Shown: positions 1,503 to 53,315 of the stretch, piece by piece
Position numbering within the stretch: the first letter of the stretch is position 1
How the letters are laid out: each line of letters begins with the position of its first letter
NCBI RefSeq assembly: GCF_055900595.2
Contig: NZ_CM148325.1
DNA: 64,000 bases
Reading direction: 5' to 3' (one strand)
Position numbers and translations under genes: made by a program
Notes under the pieces: model-generated
Told to the model about the DNA's origin: nothing
What the model saw: only the letters and a program-made list of their open reading frames with translations
The model's database searches: none

Positions 1503-2501
<999 letters not shown>

Positions 2502-2686
2502 TCAGAACATCGTTTTTTCGTCACACCTGGCGGGTGACTAATACGATTTAATAATAAAAAAGGTGCTAACTATAACCACTATATCATTTATAGCCTTAGT
2601 GTATAGGTGTGAAGAAAAAATAATATGCAATAAAAAAGGGCCGCTTTCGCGACCCTTTGTTTATAATAACCTGACAGAATTAAAGG

Positions 2687-5284
2687 TTATTTTTTCCCTT
2701 CAACCCATTTGCCATCAACATAAAATGCTGACCAGCCAGTCGCCTTTCCGTCTTTTTCCGAAGAGACATATTGCTGTTTGGTTTTACGGCTAAAGCGAAC
2801 CATGGTCTTATTACCTTCCGGATCCTGCTGTGGCGCATCGGCCAGATAACGCAGTTTTTCCGGCAGACGGTCGCGGAAGCGATAAAGCTCTTCCACCAGT
2901 GGCGCACGTGTTTCACGCGATTTCGGGAAGGTATTGGCCGCCAGGAACACACCGGCAGCACCGTCACGCAGCACGAAATAAGCATCTGATTTTTCGCACG
3001 GCAGCTCCGGTAATGGCACCGGATCTTCCTTCGGTGGTGCCACTTCGCCGTTACGTAAAATCTTACGTGTGTTTTTACACTCTTCGTTAGTGCAGGCCAT
3101 GTATTTACCGAAACGCCCCATTTTCAGGTGCATTTCAGATCCACATTTTTCACACTCAACGATCGGGCCGTCATAACCCTTAATGCGGAATTCGCCCTCT
3201 TCGATCTCGTAACCGTCGCAGGTTGGGTTATTACCACAGACATGCAACTTACGTTTCGGATCGATGAGATAGCTGTCCATCGCCGTGCCGCATTTCGGGC
3301 AACGACGTTTTGCGCGCAGCGCGTTGGTTTCAGCGTCTTCACCTTCCAGCACGTTCAGCACTTCGTTTTCCGGCACCAGGTTGATGGTGGTTTTGCAACG
3401 CTCTTTCGGTGGCAGAGCGTAGCCGGAACAGCCAAGGAATACCCCGGTGCTCGCTGTGCGAATACCCATTTTGCGACCACAGGTCGGGCAGTCGATGCTG
3501 GTCAGAACCATCTGGTTCGGGCGCATACCCCCCTCTTCGGGATCTTTTTCAGCTTTATCTAACTGCTGGGTGAAATCCGAGAAGAAGTGATCCAGTACAG
3601 CTTTCCACTCTGCTTCGTGATTTGCCACCTGGTCGAGGCTGTTTTCCATCTGTGCGGTGAAGTCGTAGTTCATTAACTCACGGAAATTCTCTTCCAGGCG
3701 ATCGGTGACGATTTCGCCCATTTTTTCCGCATAGAAACGACGATTTTCTACTCGCACATAGCCACGATCCTGAATGGTCGAAATGATCGACGCGTAGGTA
3801 GACGGACGACCGATACCGCGTTTTTCCAGCTCTTTAACCAGCGATGCTTCACTGAAACGGGCTGGCGGCTTGGTAAAGTGCTGGGCTGGTGTCAGTTCAA
3901 CGAGCGTCAGAGCATCGCCTTTATCGACTGCCGGTAAGATACGATCTTCATCGCCTTTACGCAGCGCAGGCATCACTTTCGTCCAGCCATCAAAGCGCAA
4001 AATACGACCGCGTGCTTTCAGGCGGAAATCGCCCGCACCAACGGTCAGCGTCGTGGAGTCATATTTCGCTGGGGTCATCTGGCAGGCAACGAACTGACGC
4101 CAGATTAACTGGTACAGTTTCTGCGCATCTGCTTCCATATCCTTCAGCGATTCCGCCATCACATTGACGTCAGAAGGACGAATCGCTTCGTGCGCTTCCT
4201 GTGAGTTTTCTTTGCTGGCGTACTGATTCGGACTTTCCGGCAGATATTTCTTACCAAAATTATCGCTGATATAACCGCGAACCATATTTACTGCGTCCTG
4301 ACTCAGGTTGGTGGAGTCGGTACGCATGTAAGTGATATAGCCTGCTTCATACAAACGCTGCGCCATCATCATGGTTTTTTTCACGCCAAAACCAAGACGG
4401 GTGCTGGCAGCTTGTTGCAGCGTAGAGGTAATAAAAGGAGCGCCAGGTTTACTGGTTGTCGGTTTGTCTTCACGTTCCAGCACGCTGTAGCGCGCTTTTT
4501 CCAGCAGACTTACCGCAGCCTGAGTTTGTTCTTTGTTGACCGGGCGGAACGGTTTGTCGTTCTGATGAGTCACCTGCAACGCCAACGCATCACCAGATGG
4601 CGTGGTCGTGCTGGCATCGACTTCCCAGAACTCTTCCGGTACGAACGCTTTAATTTCACGCTCACGCTCGACCACCAGGCGGACCGCCACCGACTGCACA
4701 CGACCTGCAGACAGACCACGAGCGATCTTTTTCCACAGCAGCGGCGAAACCATATATCCCACCACGCGGTCCATAAAACGACGCGCCTGCTGGGCATTAA
4801 CACGATCAATATTCAGCTCACCCGGTTTGTTAAATGCCTGGCGGATCGCGTTTTTAGTAATTTCGTTAAACACCACTCGGCTATAGCGCGCATCATCACC
4901 ACCAATCACTTCCCGCAGGTGCCATGCAATGGCTTCCCCTTCGCGGTCAAGGTCGGTTGCGAGATAGATGTGGTCGGCTTTTTCAGCCAGTTGTTTCAGT
5001 TCAGAGACGACCTTCTCTTTACCAGGCAACACTTCATAGTGCGCCTCCCAATTGTGCCACGGGTCAACCCCCATACGGTTGACGAGAGCGCCACGTTCAT
5101 CCTTTTTAGGCTTTTTAGCCGTCTTGGTGGAGGTAGAGTCGGCACTCTTTTTGGCAGCTGAGCCACTGGTCGGCAAATCGCGGATGTGACCGACGCTGGA
5201 TTTCACCACGTAGTCACTACCCAGATACTTGTTGATCGTTTTGGCTTTTGCCGGGGACTCAACGATGACAAGAGCTTTACCCAT
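2687..5284 (-). CDS. topA: DNA topoisomerase I
   Basis: ORF track 2687..5326; start set at internal Met ([22 protein letters not shown]) giving 865 aa; C-terminal zinc-ribbon Cys clusters present. Confidence 0.95.
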
Positions 5285-5663
5285 ATTCACCTTACCTAAT
5301 TTGATTCTTCCAGGAATGCGTCGCACGTTGATAAACCTTCCACTGGCAACGAGTTACCGATATGGACTCGTTCTCTGCGGATATCAACCCCTTGTCGTGA
5401 CTCTGTTCACGAAAATTCAGGTGACTGAGTTAACAGGTCTTGGCCTACAGGCGCTATAGCACGACGGAATTTTGGTCGAATGTCAAGCAAATCTATTGCC
5501 AGATTGACGAAAGCGTCACACTGTACCTGATAAAATCCGATACGCAACTTTATTAGCATGCAAAATCCAAAGTTGCCAGTAAGGCGCTCTTGCCACCAGC
5601 GTGGTATATTTGTCTGCAAGCCATGCCTGGCGTAGACTAATGTCCTTGTTTAAGGAGTAAATA

Positions 5664-14911: not shown

Positions 14912-16474
14912 ATGCAAACACAAAAACCGACTCTCGAACTGTTAACCTGCGAAGGTGCTTATCGCGATAATCCGACCGCGCTTTTTCATCAGTTGTGTGG
15001 GGATCGTCCGGCAACGCTGCTGCTGGAATCCGCAGATATCGACAGCAAGGATGATTTAAAAAGCCTGCTGCTGGTGGACAGTGCGCTGCGCATTACAGCA
15101 TTAGGTGACACTGTCACTATTCAGGCACTTTCCGGCAATGGCGAAGCTCTGCTGGCATTACTGGATAACGCCCTGCCTGCGGGTGTGGAAAATGAACAAT
15201 CACCAAACTGCCGCGTGCTGCGCTTCCCTCCTGTCAGTCCATTGCTGGATGAAGACGCCCGCTTATGCTCCCTTTCGGTTTTTGACGCTTTCCGCTTATT
15301 GCAGAATCTGTTGAATGTACCGAAGGAAGAACGGGAAGCGATGTTCTTTGGCGGCCTGTTCTCTTATGACCTTGTGGCGGGGTTTGAAGATTTACCGCAA
15401 CTGGCAGCGGAAAATAACTGCCCTGATTTCTGTTTTTATCTCGCTGAAACGCTGATGGTTATCGATCATCAGAAAAAAAGTACCCGTATTCAGGCCAGCC
15501 TGTTTGGTCAAAATGAAGAAGAAAAACAACGTCTCACTGCTCGCCTGAACGAACTTCGCCAGCAACTGACCGAAACCGCGCCACCGCTGCCGGTAGTTTC
15601 CGTGCCGCATATGCATTGTGAATGTAATCAGAGCGATGAAGAGTTCGGTGGCGTAGTGCGTTCGTTGCAAAAAGCGATTCGCGCCGGAGAAATTTTCCAG
15701 GTCGTGCCATCTCGCCGTTTCTCGCTGCCCTGCCCGTCACCGCTGGCGGCCTATTACGTGCTGAAAAAGAGTAATCCCAGCCCATACATGTTTTTTATGC
15801 AGGATAATGATTTCACCCTGTTTGGTGCGTCGCCGGAAAGTTCGCTCAAGTATGACGCCACCAGCCGCCAGATTGAGATCTACCCGATTGCCGGAACACG
15901 TCCACGAGGACGTCGCGCCGATGGTTCACTGGACAAAGACCTCGACAGCCGCATTGAACTGGAGATGCGTACCGACCATAAAGAGCTTTCTGAACATCTG
16001 ATGCTGGTGGATCTCGCCCGAAATGACCTTGCGCGCATTTGCACTCCTGGCAGCCGCTACGTTGCCGATCTGACCAAAGTTGACCGTTACTCTTACGTGA
16101 TGCATCTCGTCTCCCGCGTGGTCGGTGAGCTGCGCCACGATCTTGACGCCCTGCACGCTTACCGCGCCTGTATGAACATGGGTACGTTAAGCGGTGCCCC
16201 GAAAGTGCGCGCCATGCAGTTAATTGCCGAAGCGGAAGGTCGTCGACGCGGCAGCTACGGCGGTGCGGTAGGTTATTTCACCGCACATGGCGATCTGGAC
16301 ACCTGCATTGTCATCCGTTCGGCGCTGGTGGAAAACGGTATCGCCACCGTGCAAGCCGGTGCTGGCGTAGTCCTTGATTCTGTTCCGCAGTCGGAAGCCG
16401 ACGAAACCCGTAATAAAGCCCGCGCTGTACTGCGCGCTATCGCCACCGCGCATCATGCACAGGAGACTTTCTGA
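14912..16474 (+). CDS. trpE: Anthranilate synthase component I
   Basis: 520-aa [31 protein letters not shown]; stop overlaps trpD start. Confidence 0.96.
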
Positions 16475-18069
16475 TGGCTGACATTCTGCTGCTCGATAAT
16501 ATCGACTCTTTTACTTATAACCTGGCAGATCAGTTGCGCAGCAATGGACATAACGTGGTGATTTACCGCAACCATATCCCAGCGCAAACATTAATTGAAC
16601 GTCTGGCGACCATGAGCAATCCGGTGCTGATGCTTTCTCCTGGCCCCGGAGTGCCGAGCGAAGCCGGTTGTATGCCGGAACTCCTCACCCGCTTGCGCGG
16701 CAAGCTGCCAATTATCGGCATTTGCCTCGGTCATCAGGCGATTGTCGAAGCTTACGGGGGCTATGTCGGTCAGGCGGGCGAAATTCTTCACGGTAAAGCG
16801 TCGAGCATTGAACATGATGGTCAGGCGATGTTTGCCGGATTAACAAACCCGCTGCCAGTGGCGCGTTATCACTCGCTGGTTGGCAGTAATATTCCGGCCG
16901 GTTTAACCATCAACGCCCATTTTAATGGCATGGTGATGGCGGTGCGTCATGATGCGGATCGCGTTTGTGGATTCCAGTTCCATCCGGAATCCATTCTCAC
17001 CACCCAGGGCGCTCGCCTGCTGGAACAAACGCTGGCCTGGGCACAACAGAAGCTGGAGCCGACCAACACACTGCAACCAATTCTGGAAAAACTGTATCAG
17101 GCGCAGACGCTTAGCCAACAAGAAAGCCACCAGCTGTTTTCAGCGGTGGTGCGTGGCGAGCTGAAACCGGAACAACTGGCGGCTGCATTGGTCAGCATGA
17201 AAATTCGCGGCGAGCACCCGAACGAAATCGCCGGGGCAGCAACTGCCCTTCTGGAAAATGCTGCGCCGTTCCCACGCCCTGATTATCTGTTTGCCGATAT
17301 CGTCGGCACCGGCGGTGACGGCAGCAACAGTATCAATATTTCTACCGCCAGTGCGTTTGTCGCCGCTGCCTGTGGGCTGAAAGTGGCGAAACACGGTAAC
17401 CGCAGCGTCTCCAGTAAATCCGGCTCGTCGGATCTGCTGGCGGCATTCGGTATTAATCTTGATATGAACGCCGATAAATCGCGCCAGGCGCTGGATGAGT
17501 TAGGCGTCTGTTTCCTCTTTGCGCCGAAATATCACACCGGATTTCGCCATGCGATGCCGGTTCGCCAGCAACTGAAAACCCGCACCCTGTTCAACGTGCT
17601 GGGGCCACTGATTAACCCGGCGCATCCGCCGCTGGCGCTAATTGGTGTCTACAGCCCGGAACTGGTGCTGCCAATTGCCGAAACCTTGCGCGTGCTGGGG
17701 TATCAACGCGCAGCGGTGGTGCACAGCGGGGGGATGGATGAAGTTTCATTACACGCGCCGACAATCGTTGCCGAACTGCATGACGGCGAAATTAAGAGCT
17801 ATCAGTTGACCGCTGAAGATTTTGGCCTGACACCCTACCATCAGGAGCAACTGGCAGGCGGAACACCGGAAGAAAACCGTGACATTTTAACACGCTTGTT
17901 ACAAGGTAAAGGCGACGCAGCCCATGAAGCAGCTGTCGCGGCGAATGTCGCCATGTTAATGCGCCTGCATGGCCAGGAAGATCTGCAAACCAATGCGCAA
18001 ACCGTTCTTGAGGTACTGCGCAGTGGTTCCGCTTACGACAGAGTCACCGCACTGGCGGCACGAGGGTAA
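16474..18069 (+). CDS. trpD: Bifunctional anthranilate synthase component II / anthranilate phosphoribosyltransferase
   Basis: 531-aa [25 protein letters not shown]; glutamine amidotransferase N-domain plus PRT C-domain. Confidence 0.96.
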
Positions 18070-25362: not shown

Positions 25363-25818
25363 TTATTCAACACCTGAATCCCCCGCCGCTTCTCTCCCCT
25401 TTATAAAACGCCCCTTCCGGAATCCAGACCGCTGCAGTGCACGACGAAGATGACCGTATACCGTCTTGTCATTCTGCCCCGTCTCTTCTGTAATCTCCGC
25501 AATACTTAAACCTCTGTAATACCGGTTCAGTACCGCTCTGCGCTCTTCCAGCGTCAACACACCTCCGGCCGCTCTCAGATTCATCATCGACTTATTCAGA
25601 ATACAGCAGGCCTCTCCGGTAAAAAGAATACGAACAATATCTGTATACTCATCATCACAGAATACAAAATAATATCTGAATGACCTGCCTGACTGCACCC
25701 TTCTTCTGTCTGATATGGCATCTTCTATATATCTGATTCGACTGCTTACGGTTCCAAATATCTCTCGCAGGGCTTTTTCAAAATAAATATCTCTCGTCGC
25801 CAGGATTATATCCAGCAT
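25363..25818 (-). CDS. LuxR/GerE-type helix-turn-helix transcriptional regulator
   Basis: 151-aa ORF; C-terminal LTLEERRAVLNRYYRGLSIAEITEETGQNDKTVYGHLRRA resembles the GerE HTH; sits immediately downstream of the adhesin gene. Confidence 0.6.
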   Translation of the reverse strand: MLDIILATRDIYFEKALREIFGTVSSRIRYIEDAISDRRRVQSGRSFRYYFVFCDDEYTDIVRILFTGEACCILNKSMMNLRAAGGVLTLEERRAVLNRYYRGLSIAEITEETGQNDKTVYGHLRRALQRSGFRKGRFIKGREAAGDSGVE

Positions 25819-25879
25819 CTCTGTACCTCATTATATCCCGGGGGACTCCCCCCGGGACAGATATCTAAATCCTGACCTG

Positions 25880-27520
25880 TCAGAACTCAAAATTCACACC
25901 AGCATTCCACGATGCGGATGACCCACCTGCAGCAACTGCAACTTTTCCTGCCACATTCTCTGTGAAACGGTAGCCCACGCCCACCGCAATGGCCTGCTCA
26001 TCACGGTAACCACCAACGGCTGCTGTCGCGTTAAATTTTCCAACACTGTATGGCTGGAAAAGACCGGCCAGTGCCGCGCTCTGGGCTGCACTCTCCCTTA
26101 ACTCCTTCCGGTTCTCTTTAATCTGCTCCTGCATATTATTCATTCTCTCTGTCGCCATCTTCTGCCAGGCTTCCGTCAAATCCAGACGATGACTGTTATT
26201 CCTTATCGCTGCTGTATTTGAGGCTATTGCTGCATCCGTCTGCGCCACCGCTGCCGATGTGACTGCAATAATATCCCTGCTGAGTTCATCACGTACTGCT
26301 GTAACCTGACTGTCAGTATGAGCACGGGCATCTCTGTATACACCGCCTATCTCACCACGCAGACTGTCTCCCTCTGCCTTCAGTTCATCACGTACTGCTG
26401 TGACCTGACTGTCAGTATGAGCACGGGCATCTCTGTATACACCACCTATCTCACCACGCAGACTGTCTCCCTCTGCCTTCAGTTCATCACGTACTGCTGT
26501 GACCTGACTGTCAGTATGAGCACGGGCATCTCTGTATACACCGCCTATCTCACCACGCAGACTGTCTCCCTCTGCCTTCAGTTCATCACGTACTGCTGTG
26601 ACCTGACTGTCAGTATGAGCACGGGCATCTCTGTATACACCACCTATCTCACCACGCAGACTGTCTCCCTCTGCCTTCAGTTCATCACGTACTGCTGTGA
26701 CCTGACTGTCAGTATGAGCACGGGCATCTCTGTATACACCGCCTATCTCACCACGCAGACTGTCTCCCTCTGCCTTCAGTTCATCACGTACTGCTGTGAC
26801 CTGACTGTCAGTATGAGCACGGGCATCTCTGTATACACCACCTATCTCACCACGCAGACTGTCTCCCTGTGATTTCACTTCAACCCCAAGGTTGCGGGTA
26901 CGATTATCCAGCTCCACGACGAATTCTTTAACAGGGACTGTCTGAGCATTTCCGTCAGCCCTTCCGTCAGCAGTGATTCGGCCTGATGAATCCAGAACAA
27001 AATTCTGGCCTTCAACTACATTTTTATACAATGATGACAATCCCGATGTTGTATTACTAATTTTAATAAAATCCTCAGCGGTACCACCAGCATTAACAGC
27101 GGCGATATAATCATCCTTGTTTTCTGGCTTGATTATTTTTTGTAGTGATTCTTTTGTATCAACAATGGACTTTATATCTTCTGCTTTTATATTTCTGATG
27201 TTTTCGGCTTTTAATGCATCTGAGTAGATGGGGTAAGTTAGCAAATCCTGAGCAACAATATGCCTAGCATTCTCAGGAGCTGCTAATATAGCACGCGTAA
27301 TAGAATCATTCGGGACAATACGCCCTGTATTAGCTCCAGTAATAGTATTAATAAGATTAACATCATTACCTTTTGATATTACTGCCGCACCATTATCATA
27401 CAGAGTAACCTCATATCCATCTACATTAAAACTCTCTTCTGCCATAACCCCCACAGAGTAACATAACAGCGCACCGGTAACCGCCATTGCCAATACATTC
27501 TTTGCCATTATAAATTTCAT
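25880..27520 (-). CDS. YadA-like trimeric autotransporter adhesin (Eib immunoglobulin-binding-family-like)
   Basis: 546 aa; signal peptide; six tandem 33-aa coiled-coil repeats; C-terminal anchor [63 protein letters not shown] resembles YadA/Eib membrane anchors. Confidence 0.75.
26283..26872. repeat. Six tandem copies of a 99-bp repeat (two alternating variants) inside the adhesin gene
   Basis: GTCAGTATGAGCACGGGC recurs at 26312, 26411, 26510, 26609, 26708 and 26807 (period exactly 99); variants alternate CACCGCC/CACCACC. Confidence 0.9.
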
Positions 27521-27915
27521 ATGGTATATCCTGTTAAGAAGATTAAACTGTAACCCCCCCTGAATAAGCAGGCGAGATTCTTTTCCAGGATACCTTTCAG
27601 AGTCACCACTGCATTGATTTTAACAATCAATACAGTTAACATGGAATTATAGGATAAATGCACCCCGATAAAACAATATGAGCGTTCTTGTCCCCATATG
27701 TCAGCAGAGCATTCAGATATAGCTGTCAGAATAACCGTTTCCTACATCAGTCATTCATCACAGACTCAATTGTGAATCAGTTCACCTTTTTTGCAATTCC
27801 TTTATTGATCGAAAGCAGTTAATCACAGAAATTAATTACCGGAGTGAAAGCATTTGCTATGTAAACATTCCCAGAAGACATCTTCATGTTGAATATTATT
27901 CCCTTATTGACTACA

Positions 27916-27948
27916 CCCCTCTGACAGAATTTTCAGAGGGGTTTTTTT
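27916..27948 (+). terminator. Plus-strand intrinsic terminator-like hairpin between tfa and the adhesin gene
   Basis: CCCCTCTGA-CAGAATTT-TCAGAGGGG followed by TTTTTTT. Confidence 0.4.
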
Positions 27949-27955
27949 ATCAGTT

Positions 27956-28545: not shown

Positions 28546-30396
28546 TCACCGTATTCTCTGAAACAGGCCCCAAATCGTCCCAATGATATTATTGACTGTC
28601 ATGTTAGTTGTGCATAACATCCATGTACCAAGCATATGATTGCCAAATAAAAAGCGGATATCTGTAAGTTTATCCGATGACGACGACACAATAACGGCCT
28701 GTCTGATACGATACCCGGGTATTTCACGGGTATTTGTTACCTCATGATTTCGTTCTATGATCCCCAGAACATAAGACCCCACGGAATAAACACTTCCGAC
28801 GCTCGCTGGCTGCCCCGGCTGTCCCTGCGGACCTGCCGGGCCGCGTGCACCTGTATCGCCCTTTAGTCCCTGAGGACCTGCCGGGCCGCGTTCACCTGTA
28901 TCCCCCTTTAGTCCCTGTGGACCTGCCGGACCGCGTTCACCTGTATCGCCCTTTGGTCCCTGTGGGCCACGCTCCCCCTGGGCTCCCAGCTCTTTCCATT
29001 CAGACCAGGGGCCATTACCGGTAAAATTACCAGTAACAGTTCTTACGAACTTTCGTGGTGGGTTCCAGGTTGTATATTCATGCTGGCAATATCCCCATGC
29101 ACCAACTCTTACCTGAAGATAACCCGCTCTCTGAATCGGATAATTATTTTCTCGTGTAGCCCCACTGTCTGATGGCTGATAATAATCACCCTGATCGGTC
29201 ACTCGTCCCAGTCGGTTCAGATCACCATTCAGCAGTTGTCCACGGGCTGACTCTCCTCTTGGTCCCTGAGGGCCTTCCGGACCACGTGCACCTGTTTCGC
29301 CCTTTGCTCCCTGTGGACCTGCCGGGCCGCGTTCACCTGTTTCACCTTTTGGTCCCTGTGGACCTGCCGGGCCGCGTTCACCTGTATCCCCCTTTAGTCC
29401 CTGTGGACCTGCCGGACCGCGTTCACCTGTTTCACCTTTTGGTCCCTGTGGTCCTGCCGGGCCGCGTTCACCTGTTTCACCCTTTGCTCCCTGTGGACCT
29501 TCCGGGCCACGTTCACCTGTATCGCCCTTTAGTCCCTGTGGACCTGCCGGACCGCGTTCACCTGTTTCACCTTTTGGTCCCTGTGGACCTCCCGGATCTC
29601 CTTTATCCCCCTTAGGGCCTTTTTCTCCTCGCTCACCCTTTTCTCCCTTCAGACCCTGAGGGCCTTCCGGACCACGTGCACCTGTTTCGCCCTTTGCTCC
29701 CTGTGGACCTGCCGGGCCGCGTTCACCTGTTTCACCTTTTGGTCCCTGTGGACCTGCCGGGCCGCGTGCACCTGTTTCACCCTTTGGTCCCTGAGGACCT
29801 GCCGGGCCGCGTTCACCTGTATCGCCCTTTAGTCCCTGTGGACCTGCCGGACCGCGTTCACCTGTTTCACCTTTTGGTCCCTGTGGTCCTGCCGGGCCAC
29901 GTGCTCCTGTTTCACCTTTTGGCCCCTGTGGCCCGGTAATGCCTCTTTCACCACGTGCGCCGGTATCCCCTTTCTCTCCTCGTGGTCCCCGGGCAGATGC
30001 AGCTCGTTTCCGGGCTTCCTCCGCCTCAGATGCCGCGGACTCTGCTCTGTGCAGTATGGACTGCACCACAGCCTCCAGCTCTGACAACGCCTTCGGATAA
30101 TAAGGAGCATCTTCCATCTCCATCAGAAATTTATTCAGTGTTCCCGGTGAAGAATCCTCCCTGACCACGATATCTCCCACATACGAAGGACGGTAACCTT
30201 CTGTATTGAGTGTCACCCTGTATATTCCTGGCTCCACATCCATACTGTAACTCCCCGTCTCTTCCGGCATGCCATAAGCCACTGTCGTGGCGATGACTGT
30301 CTCGCTGGTTCTCTTCGCTTTCAGCTCAATAATGCATCCCGGTACCGGTTTTCCGGTTCCGTCCCTCAGCACGCCTGAAATTTTTACAGCCGCCAT
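28546..30396 (-). CDS. Side tail fibre protein with collagen-like Gly-X-Y repeats (lambda Stf-like N-terminus)
   Basis: 616 aa; N-terminus [29 protein letters not shown] resembles lambda Stf; long [19 protein letters not shown] collagen-like tracts. Confidence 0.85.
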
Positions 30397-30735: not shown

Positions 30736-31398
30736 TCAGTACGCATCATAAATTTCTGCATTTATGTAATAACAGAGGTTATTAACAACACCTGAATTAT
30801 CATTGGGCGCCGCTACGTTATCTTCAGCAAAAGTTGACTGACGCCATAACTGTGAGTTTCTGGCATTAAAACTGGCGGTATACCAGTAATAACTCTCCCC
30901 TTCCTGAACTGTCGTCCACTGGGTACACCCCGGCATTACGGCCACATCATGTCCCACACTGATCGGTACATCCTTTTCCCATATTCGCGTCATTTTTACT
31001 TCCAGTGGCAGCATTTCCGTGTTCCAGACCACCCTGCCATGACTGTCGCACAACTGTATTCCCCATTGCGGCCATACATTCACCATGTTGGCAAAAACAT
31101 AAACAACATATGTGCTGTCCTGTTCCATGCCCGGCTCCTGCCCTGTACCAGCGCTGAAAATGTCATACTGCCAGGTACCGTTAAGCTGAACCATTTCACC
31201 ATGGAAGGACTGATTACCGCTTATCTGTTTAATAAAAATCACGCAACGATAATTCGTCGGCACCCCGGTGTCGATAAACTGCATCACCGCATCACGCGCA
31301 CTCAGTGTGAAATGAAAACGGCGCACAAGGTTCAGTGGCGGCGCAACAGGTGATATCCATTCTCTCCCCCGCTCATCAGTTAATTTAAGTGCAAACAT
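30736..31398 (-). CDS. Hypothetical phage protein, 220 aa
   Basis: ORF track; Trp/Tyr-rich; sits where lambda carries lom. Confidence 0.5.
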   Translation of the reverse strand: MFALKLTDERGREWISPVAPPLNLVRRFHFTLSARDAVMQFIDTGVPTNYRCVIFIKQISGNQSFHGEMVQLNGTWQYDIFSAGTGQEPGMEQDSTYVVYVFANMVNVWPQWGIQLCDSHGRVVWNTEMLPLEVKMTRIWEKDVPISVGHDVAVMPGCTQWTTVQEGESYYWYTASFNARNSQLWRQSTFAEDNVAAPNDNSGVVNNLCYYINAEIYDAY

Positions 31399-31658
31399 CA
31401 GATCCCCCTTATCATGACCAGCACGGGTCTTAGCCAGCTTGTGTTGGCATAGTGCACTGTCCAGCCGGATACACTGGCACTGGTATGACTTCCCTGACCG
31501 TTAATCAGAATGGCCGGTGAACAGACTTCCAGACGCCAGCCCTGCAAAGGAGTATAAGAACGCTGCCCCGTCCCTTCAGTGATCACATCCAGCACCCCTG
31601 TTGGGTTTATTTCATGTGTCACAAGGCGCCCTTTGCGCCATACCCGGACTCCGAACAT
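31398..31658 (-). CDS. Hypothetical phage protein, 86 aa
   Basis: ORF track; start overlaps the J stop; coupled to the downstream ORF. Confidence 0.45.
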   Translation of the reverse strand: MFGVRVWRKGRLVTHEINPTGVLDVITEGTGQRSYTPLQGWRLEVCSPAILINGQGSHTSASVSGWTVHYANTSWLRPVLVMIRGI

Positions 31659-34600
31659 TACAGTCTCCCCAGTCGTACTCTTAACACATTGTTATCGTCA
31701 TATACGTCGATTCGCTCGCCATTGAAAAACAGGCGGCCTGCGCCGGGCCTTCCTGAGTTAATTTCAAGGCTGCCGTTTCTTGATAAACGCCACCCCGGAC
31801 TACCGGAATGAAAATTATCTGACCGGATATCTCCCGTCACTCTGGCAAAATCCACGGTCAGTTTTTTCATGAAAACATCATTCATGAACAGCTGATCACC
31901 CTGAGCCACAAACAAAGGTGTTGTATTGCCATTTTCCGGGTTAATCATCACAATACGATCTGCCTGCATCAGGATCTGACTCTGAATTCCGTCAGACGTA
32001 TTTTCGATTCCGGCACCAATACCTGCAATATAGAGACGTCCATCCCGTGTCTGCTGCAGCTTCACAGCCCACATGCTGTTCAGGTTCCGGCGCGTGTCCT
32101 CCTGAACTTTCTGTATCTGCTCAATGCTGGCATTCCAGGATCCCAGTTTTTTATCCGTGCTCTGTTTGATCTGACTTCCCTTATCATCAACATACTGTCT
32201 GATCTGCGCTATCTGTCGGCTGTTCTCCTCCGTGCTCCTGCTTACTGTCTGCCGGATTTCGCTGCCCATCCTGTCAACTTTTCTGTCAACTTCCGCAATG
32301 GCCATTGACTGTTCACCGCTCTTTTTCGCCACAACCGTACTTATTTCCGCACTTTTATCATCAACATACTGCCTGACCTGCGCTATCTGTCGGCTGTTCT
32401 CCTCCGTGCTCCTGGTTACTGTCTGCCGGATTTCACTGCTCACGCTGTCAACTTTCCTGTCGACTTTCGCAATGGCCAGCGACTGTTCACCGCTCTTTTT
32501 CGCCACCAGTTCCGTTATGCTGTTTTCAGACGCCGTGATTTTTTTCGTCACCTCTGCGATATCACGCTCCGCACGCTGCCTCACATCTTTCTCCAGCTGC
32601 GTCATTTCGCGGTTAATCTCATTCTCCAGTTGCTCAACTTCAGTGCGCAGTGCAGAGGCATCAATGCGTTCATTGATCTCCCGTCCCAGATGCGTTTTAT
32701 TTATCGCCCCCCTGAAAAAATTAAGGTAAGCGGCAGGATCATTACTCGGTTGACCGACTGCCTCCACGAATGCCGATTTACCGACAGTGTTAACACTGCG
32801 GATATAAAAGTAATAATCATGGCCCGGCTTAATATTGATACTGGCGGCTATCCAGTACAGCGCCGTGCCAAGATAGCGGGCTGTGGTTTCAACCTGCCTG
32901 ATATCGGTAATCCGCGTTTCCGAGAACCAGAACTCAAACTGTACCGTCGGGTCATAAACGGCAAGATGCGGCGTGGCGGTTATCTGAAAATAGCCCGGCG
33001 TCAGCTCAATCCGCGACGGCGCTGCCGGTGCGGCAATCCGGAACGATACCGACGCCGGGTCTCCCTGCTGCCCCCGGGCATTTACCGCCCGGACCGTCAG
33101 CGTGTAACGCCCCAGCGCCAGTTGCCTGAAGCGGTATGTGGTTTCCGTCGTCCGGGCCGTGCTGACCAGCCGCTCACTGCCGTCATCCGCTGCCACGGTC
33201 AGGCGAAGCAGGAAGCTCACGCCCTTCACCACCTTCGGCGTGTCCCAGCGCGCCAGCACCTGATATTCCCCGCTGTCTGCGGTGACTTCTGCGGTCAGGT
33301 GCTGCACCGCTGGCGGCGTGACACCATTCACCGTTCCGCTCTGGTCGCCGTCAAAGTGCGCCCCGTTATCCACGATGGCCTCTTTTTCCGGTACATGCTG
33401 CACGGCAGTGATGGCATACGTGCCGTCGTCGTTCTCACGGATACTCACGCAGCGGAACAGGCGCTGGCGCAGCGTCGGCAGCTTCAGCCCCCACACGCTG
33501 TATTCAGCAACGCCGTCAGGAACACTGCTCACTTTCACCTTCACGCCGTCAGTGACGGACTGAACCTCCACGCTGACCGGATTGCCACTTCCGTCAACCA
33601 GGCTTATCAGCGTGGTACCGGAGGATGGCAGCGTGATTTCACGATCGAGCGTCAGCGTCCGGGTCTGGCTGTTCACCGCCAGCACGCGCCCACCGGTGCT
33701 GATACCGGCATAGTCATCATCACAGATTTCAATGACATCGCCCGGCACATGGCGAAGCCCTTCGGCACCCACGCTGAAGTCCACGGTCTGCGTTTCCAGC
33801 AGCTCCGTTTTAATCAGCCACAGCCCGGCGCGGTGTGCCTGCCCCCGGCTGGTACAGCCAAAGGCATCCATCTTCGTGACGTTACGACCGTAACGGGCAA
33901 TGGCCTGCGTGTCCTCCACAAGCTCTGTCGCCGTCTCCTGGCCGTTATCCGGGTCACTCCAGTTCACCTCAACGGCATTATGGCGGTCCTTCAGGGCGCT
34001 GAAGCTGTAGCGGAACGGCGCGCCATCATCCGGCATCACCACATTACTGCGGTTATAGGTCCACACCTTATCCGACGGTCGGTCCTGCACGAACGTCAGC
34101 GTCTGCCCGTTCCATACCGGCATACAGCGCATCGCCGAGCAGAAATCACTGAGCACATCCCACGCCTTACGCTGCCTGGTCAGCCAGGCATTACAGGTGA
34201 TGCGCGGCTCCGTGCCACCAGAGCCGTCCGGCACCGACTGGTCGCAGTACTGGCCGATGACATACAGCGCCCATTTGTCCACATCCGCTGCGCCAACACG
34301 TTTCCCCATGCCGTAGCGCGGGTGGGTCAGCATATCCCACAGACACCAGGCCGGGTTATCGCTGTATGCCGGTTTAAACGTTCCGTCCCAGATACCGCTG
34401 TATTGCCGCGTCTGCGGGTTATAGTTCGACGGCACCTGCAGAATGCGCCCGCGAAAATGATAATTACGGCTCACCTGCTGGCTGCCGAACTCCTCCGAAT
34501 CCACCTGCACACCGACCAGTGCCGTGTTCGGGTAGCACTGTTTCACATCGATGATTTCGGTGTATGACGACCAGAGCGTTTTGTTCTGCAGCTGGTCTGT

Positions 34601-35167
34601 GGTGCTGTCCGGTGTCATCCTGCGCATCCGGATATTGAACGGGCGCGGCGGCAGGTTATCCACCACCACCGAAGCCAGATACTGTGAAGTGGTTTTTCCC
34701 TTAATGGTGATGTCTTTTTCCGTTAACCAGCGACCGTTACGCTGTATCTGAACCAGCAGGCGGACTTCCGACGGATTCCGGTCCCCCTTTGAGGTGGTTT
34801 CCACCAGTGCCTGCACACCGAAGGTCAGGCGCAGACGGTCGATGTTTGCCGACGTGATGGTCCGGGTAATCGGCGTGTCGTACTTCACTTCCGTACCCAG
34901 CACCGTCTCGGAGCCGGAGGATTCAAATCCCTCCGGCGGCGTCTGCTCCTGCTCACCGGCCCGGAACACCACCGTGACGCCGGAGATATTGGTATTCCCC
35001 TCACTGTCCAGCACCGGCGTACCGTTCAGCAGCACGCTTTTTAATCCATCCACCGGTCCTTGTATCGGCCCTTCGCTGATGACATCGATCACACTCAGCA
35101 ACTGCGTGGACTTCAGGTTGTCCTTCGCTTCGCGCGGGGTATGCCCCTTACTGCTGCCTTTACCCAT
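31658..35167 (-). CDS. Tail tip host-specificity protein (lambda J-like)
   Basis: 1169 aa; N-terminal two-thirds resemble lambda J; C-terminal region divergent with an internal duplicated ~49-aa segment. Confidence 0.9.
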
Positions 35168-44924: not shown

Positions 44925-46430
44925 TCATGGCATGGCCATGAGCATTTTCACGTCCGCATCACCGTCTGCTGACGTCTGTGGCACGCCACCCTGTACCGCT
45001 GCCGGTGAATGGTTCGCCATGAAATGTTCAAACATGGCGGTTGTGGATGCAGAGACCGGTTCTGCCTTACCTGATCCCGCAGCCAGCACAGCCCGGGCGT
45101 TCTCCACGGTCATTCCCGGGCAGGCAGCCAGCTGTTCAGCCTGCGCCTCAGCCCCTTTTGCCTCATCCAGGGCCATGATCTGATCACGGAGTGATGGTCC
45201 GGCATCCGCCTGCGGTGAAGCTGCCAGGATCGGGCGGGCTTTTTCCACCGTCATCTCCGGCATCGCCGCCAGCGTTGCCGCCAGTTGTTCACGACCTTTC
45301 GCCTCTTCACACGCCATAATGCGATCGGCTTCACTCTGCGCGGATGCCACCGGCTGCTGTGGTGCCGCCGCGGCCAGGATCTCCCGGGCCTGTTCAACGC
45401 TCATGCCCTGTTGTCCCGCCAGCATCGTGGCAAGCTGTTCACGTCCTTTCGCTTCCTTACTCGTCAGGATCCCCATCACTCGCTGGTTCTCCTGCGCGGC
45501 GGCTTCCGTTGCAGTTAATTGCGGCATAGTGCCTCCTGTATCATGTGTGTACAGCGCCGTGGTCATCACACTGATGGCATCCGACGCATTGACTAATTCA
45601 TCCGCCAGCCCGGCCTCAATGCCGGACTGACCTTCAAAAACGGCGGCCTCTGTTCCCGTGACCACATCCACAGACAGCCCGGTATACATCGCCACTTTTT
45701 CGGCAAACATCCGGTGTGCCGCATCAATGCGCTGCTGCATGTCCTGACGCACCTCTTCCGGTAAGGCTTCAAACTGATTGCCATCCACCTTGTGCGCCCC
45801 GGCATAAATCAGCGTGATATCCACACCGGCCTGCGCCAGATGACCGGCATAGCTGAGATGGCTCATCATCACGCCAATGGAGCCGATACGGGATGTCTGG
45901 GTAACCAGCCGTCGGGAGCAGGCCGACGCCAGCAGCATGGCTGCAGAACAGGCCGTGTCATTGCACAGTGCCCAGACCGGCTTCTGCTGACGGAGGCGGT
46001 AAATCATGTCAGCGCAGTCAAACGCGCCTGCGGCCTGCCCGCCCGGACTGTCAATGTCCAGCAGTACGCCCCGGACAGCGGTGTCCGCCATTGCCTGCTG
46101 AAGACAGGCGACAATGCCGTCATAGCCTGTCATTCCGGAAAATGGCCGCATACCACCCAGCCGGTGCACCAGCATGCCGGTCACCGGCAGTACAGCAATA
46201 CCGTTCACCACCCGGTAAACACGGGCCGGTCGTTTACCTCCGGCCATGTACTCGTCCGTTTCAGCCAGCATTCCGGGAGCATCAAGCTGTACCTGCTGTT
46301 GTGGTACCGAAAGACTTGCTGCCCCCATCTCGCGCCCGAGCGCGCAAAAGAAAACCCGCGCATAGGCGGGCTCCAGAAGCAGCGGTTCATTGAATGCTGC
46401 GGCAATAATGTGTGAAAGATTACGTCTCAC
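44925..46430 (-). CDS. Head maturation protease C with scaffold-like C-terminal repeats (lambda C/Nu3-like)
   Basis: 501 aa; lambda C-like N-terminus (AFNEPLLLEPAYARVFFCAL), S49 protease core, repeated EAKGREQLA...TVE.AR.ILAA segments. Confidence 0.85.
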   Translation of the reverse strand: MRRNLSHIIAAAFNEPLLLEPAYARVFFCALGREMGAASLSVPQQQVQLDAPGMLAETDEYMAGGKRPARVYRVVNGIAVLPVTGMLVHRLGGMRPFSGMTGYDGIVACLQQAMADTAVRGVLLDIDSPGGQAAGAFDCADMIYRLRQQKPVWALCNDTACSAAMLLASACSRRLVTQTSRIGSIGVMMSHLSYAGHLAQAGVDITLIYAGAHKVDGNQFEALPEEVRQDMQQRIDAAHRMFAEKVAMYTGLSVDVVTGTEAAVFEGQSGIEAGLADELVNASDAISVMTTALYTHDTGGTMPQLTATEAAAQENQRVMGILTSKEAKGREQLATMLAGQQGMSVEQAREILAAAAPQQPVASAQSEADRIMACEEAKGREQLAATLAAMPEMTVEKARPILAASPQADAGPSLRDQIMALDEAKGAEAQAEQLAACPGMTVENARAVLAAGSGKAEPVSASTTAMFEHFMANHSPAAVQGGVPQTSADGDADVKMLMAMP

Positions 46431-48012
46431 GTGGTGTTGTCTCCTCTTCCGGCCTGCGACTCGCCGCTATCTGCTGCTGATACGCCTGCGCTATCCACAC
46501 CGGACGTGAGAGTCCGGCTTTTTCCCGCTCTGCAGATTCCCTGACCTGCTGGCGGAAAATGTCCTGATAATCCTCACCCATCAGCGCCAGCTCTTTCTCA
46601 TACGTGCTCAGTCCGGCCTCAATGCGCATCACCGATTCCTGGACCTCCTTGAGCCCGTCAATGGCCATTCTTCCGGCTCCAATCCACTCTGCCCGTGACC
46701 AGGATGAACGCGCCTGATAAAAATCAAAACGCGCCCGTGGCGGACGAATAATCCCCCGCAGAAGAGCCTCTTCCAGCCAGCAGGAAAACATCTGCGTGGC
46801 CAGCCGGGCCGCAATAAATTTTCGCCGCCCCATAAAATAGCGCCACGACTCATTGGCGGAGGCGCGGGCACTTGAATAACTGACCTTCGAGTAATCACGG
46901 GACAACTGTTCGTAGGAAACGCCAAGACCGGCGGCGATATACCGCAGCAGCGCCTGTTCAAGCGCAGAAAATCCATTGTCTGAATCCTGCGCAGTCTGTA
47001 GTTTCAGATCATCACCGGGGAAAAGGTGCGGAATTTTGACACCGCCCAGTGTCACGTTATTCGTGTCATACCAGCTGGAAAACTTCTCCAGAATATTAAT
47101 AAGCGGATTATCCTTCTGCTCCTGCGGCGCACCGGCGATATATTCAAAGGCCTTTTCGGTATCAAGTTCACTTTCAATCGTCGCTGCATACATGGCCCTC
47201 ACTATGGCCGACTGAAGCTGTGTTGCCTGCAGGGAATCGAGCATCTTCAGCCGTTCCATGACGCTGTAAAACTGATTAGCCCCACGGGTCTGCCCGTCCT
47301 CCACCGGCTCGAAAATATGCAGCATGGCCGGACGCCCGGTGGGAAGTTCACGCGGGATCCGTTCCCATCGTCCACTACCAGAGAACGGAAAATCATCCTC
47401 ACAGATATGGTACGCGACGGCACGGCCATATCGATCGACCTCCACACCGGCCCGCAGAAAACGGTTCCCCATACCGTGTCCTGGCGTGTCCACCCGTTTC
47501 GGACTCACGGCTTTAAAACGCGTACGGAATAACTGCGTGGTTTCCGTATCCCAGACCGGCTGAACAAAGATTTCGCCGTTAAACGCATGAACGCCCACAC
47601 CTTCACGGATAAATTCCGTGAACGTGCGTTTTCCTTCCACATCGATCTCGCCAGACATCCCTTCGGCGTATTCCGACCAGGCCGCCTCCACCTCATCGAC
47701 AAAGCTTTTTGCTGCGGTCTCCCGCATCCCCAGCCAGCGCCAGTTCGGACGGTAGCTGATCAGAAACATATGCCCGACTATGTGATCCTTATGCAGAGCC
47801 ACCGCATTAGCCGCTATTCCGTTATTGCGCACCAGATCATCTGCCCGGGCATTCCCCAGACGCAACGCGGGCAGCAGGGCCGCATCGACACTCTGTGCCG
47901 GTGGCAACCACTCCTCCATTTGCCCGCCAAATCCTGCGCCGCCCCCGTTGTAGCTGAGACTCTCACGAAGCGGAACGCCGTTCACATCAATCAGGACAGG
48001 CGTTCTTTTCAT
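46420..48012 (-). CDS. Portal protein B
   Basis: 530 aa, lambda B-like length and sequence. Confidence 0.9.
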   Translation of the reverse strand: MKRTPVLIDVNGVPLRESLSYNGGGAGFGGQMEEWLPPAQSVDAALLPALRLGNARADDLVRNNGIAANAVALHKDHIVGHMFLISYRPNWRWLGMRETAAKSFVDEVEAAWSEYAEGMSGEIDVEGKRTFTEFIREGVGVHAFNGEIFVQPVWDTETTQLFRTRFKAVSPKRVDTPGHGMGNRFLRAGVEVDRYGRAVAYHICEDDFPFSGSGRWERIPRELPTGRPAMLHIFEPVEDGQTRGANQFYSVMERLKMLDSLQATQLQSAIVRAMYAATIESELDTEKAFEYIAGAPQEQKDNPLINILEKFSSWYDTNNVTLGGVKIPHLFPGDDLKLQTAQDSDNGFSALEQALLRYIAAGLGVSYEQLSRDYSKVSYSSARASANESWRYFMGRRKFIAARLATQMFSCWLEEALLRGIIRPPRARFDFYQARSSWSRAEWIGAGRMAIDGLKEVQESVMRIEAGLSTYEKELALMGEDYQDIFRQQVRESAEREKAGLSRPVWIAQAYQQQIAASRRPEEETTPRET

Positions 48013-48599: not shown

Positions 48600-49277
48600 A
48601 TGTCCATCATTTTTAATGGACACTATCGTATGAAACACCGGACCTGGATCACTGAAGCTTTACGTCTTCACTTTGAAGAACATTTACCCCGGGTTGTGGC
48701 CGGGCGTCGCCTGGGTGTACCAAAATCAACAGTTTGTAGTATGTTCGTGCGCTTTCGGAGAGCTGGCCTTTCGTGGCCTTTGCCCGCAGGCATGTCGGAG
48801 CAGGAACTTGATGCCTGCCTTTACGGACAATTTTCCACGGTACCAGTCGTACGTCCTGAAAGCACCGTTATATCCGAAGCCCCCGTGGTAAAAAAACGTC
48901 CCCGGCGGCCCAACTTCCCTTATGAGTTTAAAATCGCCTTAGTGGAGCAGTCACTGCAGCCCGGAGCCTGTGTGGCGCAGATCGCCCGGGAAAACGGAAT
49001 CAACGATAACCTGCTCTTCAACTGGCGCCATCAATACCGGAAAGGTGGCCTGCTGCCTTCCGGAAAAAATATGCCGGCACTGCTTCCCGTGACGTTAACG
49101 CCGGAGCCGGATAATAAAATCCCGGCCCCCGCACAGGAACCAGAGCGGATAAATACACCGTCCGACAGTCTGTGTTGTGAGCTGGTTCTGCCGGCCGGAA
49201 CTCTCAGGCTTAAAGGTAAACTGACGCCGGCGTTATTACAGACACTTATCCGCGAAATAAAAGGGAGCAGCCACTGA
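48600..49277 (+). CDS. IS66-family accessory protein (orfA/TnpA-like)
   Basis: First ORF of the IS; start uncertain (alternative Met at 48630); HTH-like N-terminal region. Confidence 0.65.
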   Translation: MSIIFNGHYRMKHRTWITEALRLHFEEHLPRVVAGRRLGVPKSTVCSMFVRFRRAGLSWPLPAGMSEQELDACLYGQFSTVPVVRPESTVISEAPVVKKRPRRPNFPYEFKIALVEQSLQPGACVAQIARENGINDNLLFNWRHQYRKGGLLPSGKNMPALLPVTLTPEPDNKIPAPAQEPERINTPSDSLCCELVLPAGTLRLKGKLTPALLQTLIREIKGSSH

Positions 49278-49624
49278 TGATATCTCTCCCTGCAGGTTCG
49301 CGTATCTGGCTGGTTGCAGGTATCACCGATATGCGAAATGGCTTTAACGGCCTGGCATCAAAAGTTCAGAACGTCCTGAAGGATGACCCGTTCTCCGGAC
49401 ACCTGTTCATCTTCCGCGGACGCCGGGGTGACCAGATAAAAGTGTTGTGGGCTGACAGTGACGGACTGTGCCTCTTCACCAAACGCCTGGAGCGGGGCCG
49501 CTTCGTCTGGCCAGTCACCCGTGACGGCAAGGTGCACCTTACTCCGGCTCAGTTATCCATGCTTCTTGAAGGTATCAACTGGAAGCACCCGAAACGAACG
49601 GAACGCGCTGGAATCCGCATATAA
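49277..49624 (+). CDS. IS66-family Orf2/TnpB protein
   Basis: 115 aa MISLPAGSRIWLVAGITDMRNGFNGLASKVQNVL, a signature IS66 Orf2 sequence; overlaps orfA stop. Confidence 0.85.
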   Translation: MISLPAGSRIWLVAGITDMRNGFNGLASKVQNVLKDDPFSGHLFIFRGRRGDQIKVLWADSDGLCLFTKRLERGRFVWPVTRDGKVHLTPAQLSMLLEGINWKHPKRTERAGIRI

Positions 49625-49643
49625 CCCGTTGTAAAGTGAGGAT

Positions 49644-51215: not shown

Positions 51216-51245
51216 ATATCAATACGGTTCTGACGAGTCGCTTAC

Positions 51246-52834: not shown

Positions 52835-53315
52835 CGAGTAAATCCGGTAATTTATCCCCTGCCCGCGCACACTGATTTGCCCCCTTCGCAATAAGGGTTT
52901 TCAGATGGTCAAGATGGCGCGGTGTTAAATCAGGAAACTGTCGTTGCATGGATAAAGGGATGGAATCAAGCGTACTGGATAACGCCATTGCCAGCTTGCT
53001 GAGGGCAAAAATACAGAACCCGGTGTCAATAAGTTTTCCTTTTGACACCTCATTTTTTAACTGCTGTGTAACAGCCTGTTCTGCTGTCAGTTCCCATCTG
53101 GCAATAAGCAATTTCTCCTCATAGTCGTCTTCGCTATCGCCATCAGGCACATCGTTTTTACTTCTTCTCAGATACGATATGTAAAAATCACGCCAGGCAT
53201 CCAGATCCAGTTGCCCTCGCTTATTCGATATCGGGGCACCCGGCAATTTCTGCAGTCTGCGAAGCTGGCGATCGGTCAGACTCAAATGCCTGGCAACTTC
53301 AGTCTGCGTAGCCAC
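52806..53315 (-). CDS. Terminase small subunit Nu1
   Basis: 169 aa; N-terminal HTH MATQTEVARHLSLTDRQLRRL; C-terminal half lambda Nu1-like; 3' end overlaps the A start. Confidence 0.82.
   Translation of the reverse strand: MATQTEVARHLSLTDRQLRRLQKLPGAPISNKRGQLDLDAWRDFYISYLRRSKNDVPDGDSEDDYEEKLLIARWELTAEQAVTQQLKNEVSKGKLIDTGFCIFALSKLAMALSSTLDSIPLSMQRQFPDLTPRHLDHLKTLIAKGANQCARAGDKLPDLLDEYIRATTE

Follow-up and report, generated by a model that had tools for sequence, protein, structure and literature searches.

A predicted trimeric autotransporter adhesin with a length-variable repeat stalk in an Escherichia coli prophage

INTRODUCTION

Prophage-borne trimeric adhesins of Escherichia coli, which include the Eib proteins and the more recent Cla and Yal groups, have a bearing on serum resistance and virulence as well as on aggregation and chain formation, and few of their relatives have been studied. 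Another E. coli trimeric autotransporter, the Shiga-toxigenic E. coli autoagglutinating adhesin Saa, is reported to vary in length by the number of its ~37-residue repeats; it is encoded on a plasmid and differs in sequence from the adhesin described here. Here, we describe a gene at positions 25,880 to 27,520, on the minus strand, of a 64,000-nucleotide stretch (the window) of contig NZ_CM148325.1 in assembly GCF_055900595.2. From its sequence, the 546-residue product is an uncharacterized member of the E. coli prophage trimeric autotransporter family, and its stalk is variable in length.

Three described systems bear on this gene. EibA, whose gene neighborhood has the same order, has a head made of the N-terminal domain only and gives small clumps rather than chains (PMC12511318). 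In Cha, a trimeric autotransporter of the Haemophilus cryptic genospecies, the number of tandem peptide repeats varies and affects adhesive activity (Sheets and St Geme 2011, as cited in PMC9704523). Periscope proteins display a domain on a stalk of variable length; their definition explicitly excludes trimeric autotransporters, which are said to lack tandem repeat domains (PMC9704523).

RESULTS

At the C terminus, residues 488 to 546 matched the whole of Pfam model PF03895 (1-60/60, E 3.8e-16), and the structure of the YadA anchor (PDB 2lme_A) was matched at E 2.1e-17. Because of this anchor, and because the C-terminal coil and anchor are 56% identical to those of Eib proteins, we assign the product by sequence to the trimeric autotransporter adhesins (type Vc). 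The Prokaryotic Genome Annotation Pipeline (PGAP) names its orthologs “YadA C-terminal domain-containing protein.” The original prediction, which was made from the DNA letters with no database search, had described a 546-residue open reading frame (ORF) with a signal peptide and a YadA-type membrane anchor. The ORF and the anchor are borne out, and we accept the leader by inspection. Under rule-based criteria, K2 and K7 form the n-region, residues 9 to 24 are hydrophobic, and V-M-A precedes E28; in an alignment, the homologs carry an equivalent leader that ends in AMA.

Ahead of the membrane-proximal coil and anchor lies the strongest tandem array of the window (Tandem Repeats Finder, 26283..26882, period 99, 6.1 copies, 98% matches, no indels, score 1144). 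In the protein, five identical 33-residue units (residues 221 to 385) are followed by a sixth that matches at 28/33 residues (386 to 413) and then diverges into SRDII, for a total of ~5.86 units. Thus, the six perfect 99-bp repeats of the original prediction were slightly overstated, five units being identical and the last incomplete. Its two alternating unit variants with a one-base difference were confirmed and are synonymous. The DNA units alternate GGT and GGC (both Gly) at unit position 21, read as CACCACC and CACCGCC on the plus strand, and from this alternation the true period is a 198-bp super-unit, the T/C pair, which is present three times. The last unit has further differences, including the synonymous 63C>T and 84G>C, and the nucleotide identity between units is 98 to 100%.

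The sole alpha-helix-compatible hydrophobic harmonic of the array is 3.67 residues (33/9), which is hendecad-like. Pfam returned weak apolipoprotein-like matches on the array, with an 11/22-mer character, and an AlphaFold2 (AF2) monomer model drew the first unit as a single helix at low confidence. When the repeat unit was searched against the PDB, only chance-level coiled-coil matches were obtained, and EibD was not among them. Two other signals arise from the repetition itself. A perfectly repetitive antisense ORF of 184 codons’ worth of amino acids (26318-26872, plus strand) crosses the array and is a mechanical by-product, not a gene. The sole PADLOC result was a 22-residue, repeat-driven match to the candidate family PDC-S02 that no stretch passes alone, and we hold it to be spurious.

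We took the 120 best database relatives of the 546-residue adhesin and then compared the DNA of the loci. Proteins with an identical head (220/220) and an identical C terminus (133/133) carried 1, 2, 3, 4, or 5 units (381, 414, 447, 480, and 513 residues, respectively). The 1-, 2-, 3-, and 4-unit alleles share one prophage and one site on the chromosome. Compared with the window, their flanks of 1671 bp (5') and 918 bp (3') are 99.4 to 100% identical, as are the upstream 443 bp at 99.5 to 100%, and it is the number of units that differs. If each unit is written as its base at position 21, with an asterisk for the last, truncated unit, the patterns are [T*] for 1 unit, [T][T*] or [T][C*] for 2 units, [T][C][T*] for 3 units, [T][C][T][C*] for 4 units, and [T][C][T][C][T][C*] for the 6 units of the window. 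These patterns are nested across the series, and adding one T/C pair to the 4-unit allele gives that of the window. The 5-unit allele is on a short draft contig with an N within the array, and a 5.4-unit allele in a complete genome is at another chromosomal site with a different junction. Read directly, GF4 has four units and TUM1886 has five.

Differences between complete units were synonymous in every allele. Taken together, near-identical flanks, differing unit numbers, and nested patterns indicate that, as judged from these sequences, the unit number at this locus changes faster than point mutation does, always in frame and with the peptide conserved. The proneness to in-frame copy-number change that had been predicted is therefore seen in nature, as an allelic series of 1 to 6 units. 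Among 5,426 complete E. coli genomes, ~6 carry this head, with gene lengths of 1311 to 1617 bp, consistent with ~1 to 5 units. Chicken or chicken meat was the source of four of these six complete genomes; a host association is possible, in what is a very small sample.

In a sister family of E. coli prophage adhesins, which is much commoner, the same units and anchor carry a head and neck of the YadA type. Examples are P0048 (397 residues) and P0087 (452 residues, on >1000 contigs), and three copies of the unit were present in 57/65 full-length clusters of this family. Heads have evidently been swapped onto one stalk-and-anchor module, to judge from these sequences.

Copy-number variation of this kind may be neutral, with the repeats being merely recombination-prone DNA and stalk length having no functional consequence. 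All copy numbers from 1 to 6 preserve the reading frame, and the few alleles with this head show no clearly prevailing number, as neutrality would have it. Still, the synonymous character of all differences between complete units in all alleles means that the peptide is conserved, the same unit is retained in the sister family, mostly in three copies, and Cha provides a precedent, as PMC9704523 cites it, for repeat number modulating adhesion. We therefore consider neutrality somewhat unlikely.

A second alternative concerns the count of six. The gene would be real and the number of units an assembly artifact, with expansion or misresolution of a 580-bp near-perfect repeat hiding a true allele of fewer units, e.g., four. 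Six units were present in no other sequence of the collections searched, and the closest complete genomes (99.7% identity) have four. Short-read assemblies fail at the array, with many “partial” proteins ending within it (P0023-P0025, P0231, P0261, P0262, and P0265), and the N of the 5-unit draft allele falls inside it; short-read assemblies are thus no reliable guide to copy number here. An 80-nt pattern from the head/array junction had no match in the species-representative genomes. However, the six-unit array keeps the strict T/C alternation expected from adding one 198-bp pair to the 4-unit allele. The window also assembles unbroken through an IS66 element, a 15-copy collagen repeat, and the prophage genes, which suggests long-read data, and 5-unit alleles are known in complete genomes, from which six is a small step. 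An artifact thus appears unlikely to us, and six units would be a plausible next step in the allelic series.

We compared the protein with the Eib family, to which the original prediction had likened it. By BLASTP, residues 423 to 546 were 56% identical to EibA and EibE, with the same 56% to the adhesin of phage GER2, and residues 354 to 546 were 43% identical to EibC and EibD. There was no similarity to EibA/C/D/E in the first ~350 of the 546 residues. The gene neighborhood was also of the Eib kind. The P-EibA/C/D/E records (AF151091 and AF151674-6) and phage GER2 have the same order of orf-191, stem-loop, eib, stem-loop, and orf-156, and from this order the adhesin gene occupies the eib-type moron slot of the ECOR-9 prophages. 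Thus, the Eib likeness holds for a prophage-borne trimeric autotransporter in the ECOR-9 eib slot with a related C terminus, and it does not extend to the first ~350 residues or to the segment that binds Fc.

That segment, GLVALSGRTDRID(Y/A) (SGRTDRID(Y/A)AVG) at the saddle exit, was gapped in the 546-residue adhesin when it was aligned with EibA/C/D/E by MAFFT. In a pairwise alignment, Ser422 stood where a related Eib-like protein has Asp; in EibG, mutating the Asp of the segment abolishes immunoglobulin G (IgG) Fc binding (preprint 10.64898/2025.12.25.695649). The saddle stretch TTVGV.DG.LTRAEGA..I.VNDGLV, present in EibA-E and in other proteins with this head type, was also gapped. There was no Pfam match to a beta-roll head, neck, or stalk, and a search with the 546-residue adhesin did not match the EibD structure of residues 160 to 418 (2xqh) at E <= 1 and matched 2xzr only at E 0.2.

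Could the product nonetheless be a functional Eib-type protein, conferring nonimmune IgG Fc and/or immunoglobulin A binding and serum resistance? The shared prophage slot and the C-terminal identity to Eib proteins fit this proposal, as do the name “immunoglobulin-binding protein” that public databases give to sister proteins and a loose alignment of one repeat unit with the EibD post-neck coil through a common GGVY(R/D)D motif. Against it, the Fc-binding segment with its critical Asp falls in a gap; saddle, neck, and beta-roll head are absent by Pfam, PDB, and alignment searches; and neither the full protein, at the E values given above, nor the repeat unit alone finds EibD. The database names are propagated labels and are not evidence of function on any relative, and the Eib-related Cla adhesins do not bind IgG (preprint 10.64898/2025.12.25.695649). 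Taken together, the adhesin appears to share the Eib chassis and locus and to fail the sequence features tied to immunoglobulin binding. We consider an Eib-type function improbable, and the predicted virulence and serum-resistance role of the Eib type is unsupported by the sequence.

A Pfam scan gave no family over the head (residues 28 to 220), and BLASTP against EibA/C/D/E gave no match for it. When the head was used as the query in a complete search of 1.84 billion representative proteins, 9 matches were returned at E <= 0.001. A head profile search found 192 proteins, all from E. coli/Shigella and mostly of 200 to 415 residues; many are partial, and the complete ones have a YadA anchor. 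Among the representative matches, P0123 joins this head type to the saddle and the Fc-binding coil of EibD (27% identity to the 546-residue adhesin; 2xqh, E 3e-21; 2xzr, E 5e-11). The head-family profile matched EibA at residues 99 to 184 only, a marginal hit with an independent E value of 0.008 in a 13-sequence search. For the head plus first unit, the AF2 monomer (22-sequence alignment) had a mean predicted local distance difference test score (pLDDT) of 61 and showed ~40 beta-rich residues followed by helices; Foldseek of this model against the PDB found nothing below E 0.9. A pseudotrimer of three copies in one chain with 40-residue Gly-Ser linkers had a pLDDT of 45 and was unusable.

By gene content, the adhesin gene lies in a lambdoid E. 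coli prophage beside trp-yciGFE (Table 1). Read along the minus strand, the genes and elements are tape measure, J, lom-like gene, collagen-like tail fiber, tfa-like gene, hairpin, AT-rich DNA, adhesin, GC-rich hairpin, and helix-turn-helix (HTH) gene. Beyond the HTH gene, ~380 bp of AT-rich DNA leads to DinI and an antirepressor on the other strand, after which come yciEFG/trp. The predicted position next to tail fiber genes was thus correct by PHROG matches. J and the lom-like gene have the same order as in prophage P-EibA, and the tfa-like protein is 56% identical to ORF-191A. Similar adhesin genes were present in 18 phage records in a protein-level search, which recovered the Eib records, and megablast of the adhesin locus against the phage collection gave no match.

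TABLE 1 Coordinates of the adhesin gene, its domains, and its neighbors in the window
Feature	Position	Strand	Basis or remark
HTH protein, 151 residues, immediately downstream of adhesin	25363..25818	-	Pfam Sigma70_r4_2, E 3.7e-7
GC-rich hairpin CCCGGGGGG-AGU-CCCCCGGG, between adhesin and HTH genes	25834..25859	-	RNA fold of 25810-25890, -33.7 kcal/mol, z = -3.1
Adhesin gene, full ORF including stop	25880..27520	-	ORF listing; predicted 546-residue trimeric autotransporter adhesin
YadA-type beta-barrel anchor, residues 488-546	25883..26059	-	PF03895; 2lme_A
Nonrepeated membrane-proximal coiled coil, residues 414-487	26060..26281	-	From ~residue 423, homologous to Eib left-handed coiled coil
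Tandem array, residues 221-413, variable-length part of stalk	26282..26860	-	5.86 units of 99 bp: five identical 33-residue units and one truncated
N-terminal head, residues 28-220	26861..27439	-	AT-rich, 36-40% GC (GC profile); no Pfam family
Sec-type signal peptide, residues 1-27	27440..27520	-	Inspection only: n-, h-, and c-regions, V-x-A at cleavage site
AT-rich upstream region, 435 bp, presumed own promoter	27521..27955	-	Sequence
Tail-fiber-assembly-like protein (DUF4376), 191 residues	27956..28531	-	PHROG 1141, E 5e-62; counterpart of orf-191 of eib loci
Collagen-like side tail fiber, 616 residues	28546..30396	-	PHROG 366, E 2e-124
lom-like outer membrane protein gene	30736-31398	-	PHROG 425
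Central tail fiber J gene	31658-35167	-	PHROG 31

The region upstream of the adhesin gene, which has a hairpin (27915-27942) directly behind the tfa-like gene, is 99.5 to 100% identical to ten allele loci and 96% identical over the part shared with locus L002. A G7 tract at 27552-27558, ~30 nt upstream of the start codon, was considered as a slippage switch for phase variation; we rejected this, as the tract was invariant in all eleven loci carrying the start codon. The hairpin downstream of the adhesin gene was also rejected as a terminator. In the eib loci, a stem-loop is annotated at the same position and is a canonical terminator, and unlike the eibA terminator, the hairpin here has no U-run, so the adhesin and HTH genes may be cotranscribed.

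The HTH gene had been predicted to encode a LuxR-type regulator. It does encode an HTH protein, with Pfam matches to Sigma70_r4_2, HTH_38, and Sigma70_r4; GerE, the LuxR domain, was not among its Pfam matches at E <= 10, and the LuxR label is unsupported. NCBIfam gave weak sigma-70/extracytoplasmic function (ECF) matches only, below the cutoffs, and PGAP names the protein “sigma factor-like helix-turn-helix DNA-binding protein.” One source labels a member of its cluster NarL/FixJ, and a related tetrahelical or small HTH fold is possible from the sequence. The protein is distantly similar to orf-156 of the eib loci, collinear from end to end at 21 to 22% identity. Wherever the DNA of a locus (L001-L017) reaches far enough, the adhesin is followed by a gene for an HTH protein of 150 to 166 residues, and this holds for phage GER2 and the four ECOR-9 eib loci as well. 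The adhesin/HTH pair is split by an insertion in L007 and in L009, in the latter by a DDE transposase gene. This family of small HTH regulators beside adhesins appears uncharacterized.

Several other features of the window were recorded. The collagen-like tail fiber gene has repeats of its own at 28821-28965 and 29259-29931 (45 bp, or five Gly-X-Y triplets; 15.3 copies, 78% identity), and in same-locus alleles of other strains the fiber is 441, 540, 571, or 616 residues long, making it a second length-variable gene beside the adhesin. IS66 (TnpA, a TnpB-sized ORF, and transposase) occupies 48600-51215, just past the lambda-type portal gene (46420-48012), with a large ORF on the far side (51242-52891). 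Adjacent tRNA-Lys(ttt) and tRNA-Met(cat) genes are within the prophage region at 57609-57762 on the minus strand. The window is E. coli chromosome, and in it cysB-topA (1503-5326) is 100% identical to many complete E. coli genomes. For trpE-trpD (14912-18069), ~10 kb away, identity to 4657 of the complete genomes is only 90 to 95%, and the highest value is 98.2%. By sequence comparison, the trp segment by the prophage has the look of DNA that is divergent through recombination or import.

Last, we weighed whether the product is a virion component, a tail-fiber-like adhesin of the phage particle. Some PHROG families matched by its C-terminal part are labeled “tail” or “adhesin,” some phage records annotate homologs as tail fiber proteins, and the gene comes after the tail fiber genes, but a Sec leader with a membrane-embedded YadA beta-barrel anchor would be meaningful nowhere except in the outer membrane of the host, the tail operon is set apart from the gene by a hairpin and 435 bp of AT-rich DNA, and the characterized homologs (Eib) are bacterial surface proteins, which leaves this idea barely credible.

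DISCUSSION

The data are, in our view, likely to be best explained by a lysogenic-conversion gene (“moron”) of a lambdoid E. coli prophage, placed between the tail fiber assembly gene and the prophage end, that encodes a type Vc adhesin with a length-variable stalk. The moron character is supported by tape measure, J, lom, tail fiber, and tfa upstream, by DinI and the antirepressor downstream, and by the AT-rich upstream region and head. If the protein behaves like the rest of its family, the Sec leader would carry the chain to the periplasm, and three C-terminal four-stranded segments would form one 12-stranded outer membrane barrel. The passenger would then be threaded out and zip into a trimeric fiber, with the Eib-like coil at the membrane, the 33-residue units above it, and the globular head outermost. 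Whole units would be added or removed by unequal recombination or replication slippage, in 99-bp or 198-bp registers, and the frame is kept through such changes because 99 is a multiple of 3 and the units are nearly identical.

What the stalk would do can be put in physical terms. Each unit would span ~4.9 nm (33 x 0.148 nm) on the assumption, made uncertain by four glycines per unit, that the array is a continuous coiled coil; the head of the 6-unit allele would then stand ~25 nm further out than that of the 1-unit allele. Stalk length might, speculatively, decide head clearance of O-antigen or capsule and antibody exposure. By analogy, the most likely role of the adhesin is cell-cell or cell-surface adhesion and aggregation, and the relatives in PMC12511318 suggest an aggregation or adhesion phenotype. 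The 151-residue HTH protein is probably, if speculatively, the element’s own regulator and would control the adhesin.

Several points weigh against this model. Expression, trimerization, surface display, and a ligand of the adhesin are all inferred. The three-dimensional models are of low confidence for both the monomer and the linked pseudotrimer, at the pLDDT values given above, and with its glycines the array may not be one uninterrupted coiled coil. The six-copy count comes from a single assembly, GCF_055900595.2; the 6-unit allele was not found in the 5,426 complete E. coli genomes, nor was the exact 546-residue protein found in a collection of 15 billion proteins. Finally, IS66 beside the portal gene marks the prophage as decaying and probably defective, which does not prevent expression of the adhesin gene.

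Prophage trimeric adhesins, and variation of repeat number in such adhesins, are already known. The gene described here is an uncharacterized member with an unusually clean allelic series and a head that has no Pfam family. In this natural series at one locus, the head, anchor, and promoter region are constant, and the stalk alone varies, with 1 to 6 units. How stalk length affects the exposure of the head can therefore be tested directly.

Among described systems, EibA of P-EibA (ECOR-9, AF151091) is alike in locus order (J, lom, tail fiber, a 191-residue tfa-like ORF, stem-loop, adhesin, stem-loop, and an ORF of ~150 residues), in the last 124 residues of coil and anchor, and in having a non-beta-roll N-terminal head set directly on a coiled-coil stalk. 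In contrast, the protein described here lacks the saddle and the SGRTDRIDA IgG segment, and EibA lacks a perfect tandem array; the head similarity is marginal, and orf-156 is only a distant relative of the partner HTH protein. EibC/D/E/G (EibD structures 2xqh and 2xzr) are alike in the anchor, the membrane-proximal left-handed coil, and the prophage slot, with EibD at 43% over 213 residues. They have an N-terminal domain along with a beta-roll head, neck, right-handed coil, saddle, and Fc-binding Asp, whereas the protein of the window is without all five of the latter. A gene for a 1335-residue classical autotransporter, eaaA or eaaC (L013, 5932-9939; L014, 3317-7324), comes after the eib/orf-156/orf-60 cassette of P-EibA and P-EibC and has no counterpart at that place in the window.

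The sister adhesins have the same 33-residue units, and the C-terminal 133 residues of P0048 are identical to those of the 546-residue adhesin. They differ in that a YadA-like beta-roll head and neck replace the Pfam-less N-terminal domain and in their copy number, which is mostly 3 with a range of 2 to 4. Cha, so far as it is described in PMC9704523, is a functional precedent for a length-variable stalk through variation in repeat number, yet it is unrelated in sequence, organism, and repeat unit, and it is chromosomal rather than prophage-borne.

Going beyond these comparisons, we tentatively suggest, as an idea more possible than probable, that the eib-type slot is a general two-gene cassette. 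It would hold a trimeric adhesin, with heads that can be exchanged and a “telescopic” stalk made of perfect 33-residue units, and a dedicated small HTH regulator of the orf-156/151-residue family, and recombination would tune the stalk in ~5-nm steps to O-antigen or capsule thickness or to antibody pressure. If true, it would be a trimeric coiled-coil counterpart of Periscope proteins, outside current definitions and run by an uncharacterized regulator family. The likeness to Periscope proteins (Whelan 2022, PMC9704523) lies in highly identical DNA repeats within a rod-like stalk, strain-to-strain variation in copy number, and display of a domain at a variable distance. The differences are that a Periscope protein is monomeric, its repeat domains (>50 residues in the discovery screen) folding independently, while the unit here has 33 residues and would form a trimeric coiled coil. 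In a modest way, and in spirit, this locus is a counterexample to the statement that trimeric autotransporters lack tandem repeats.

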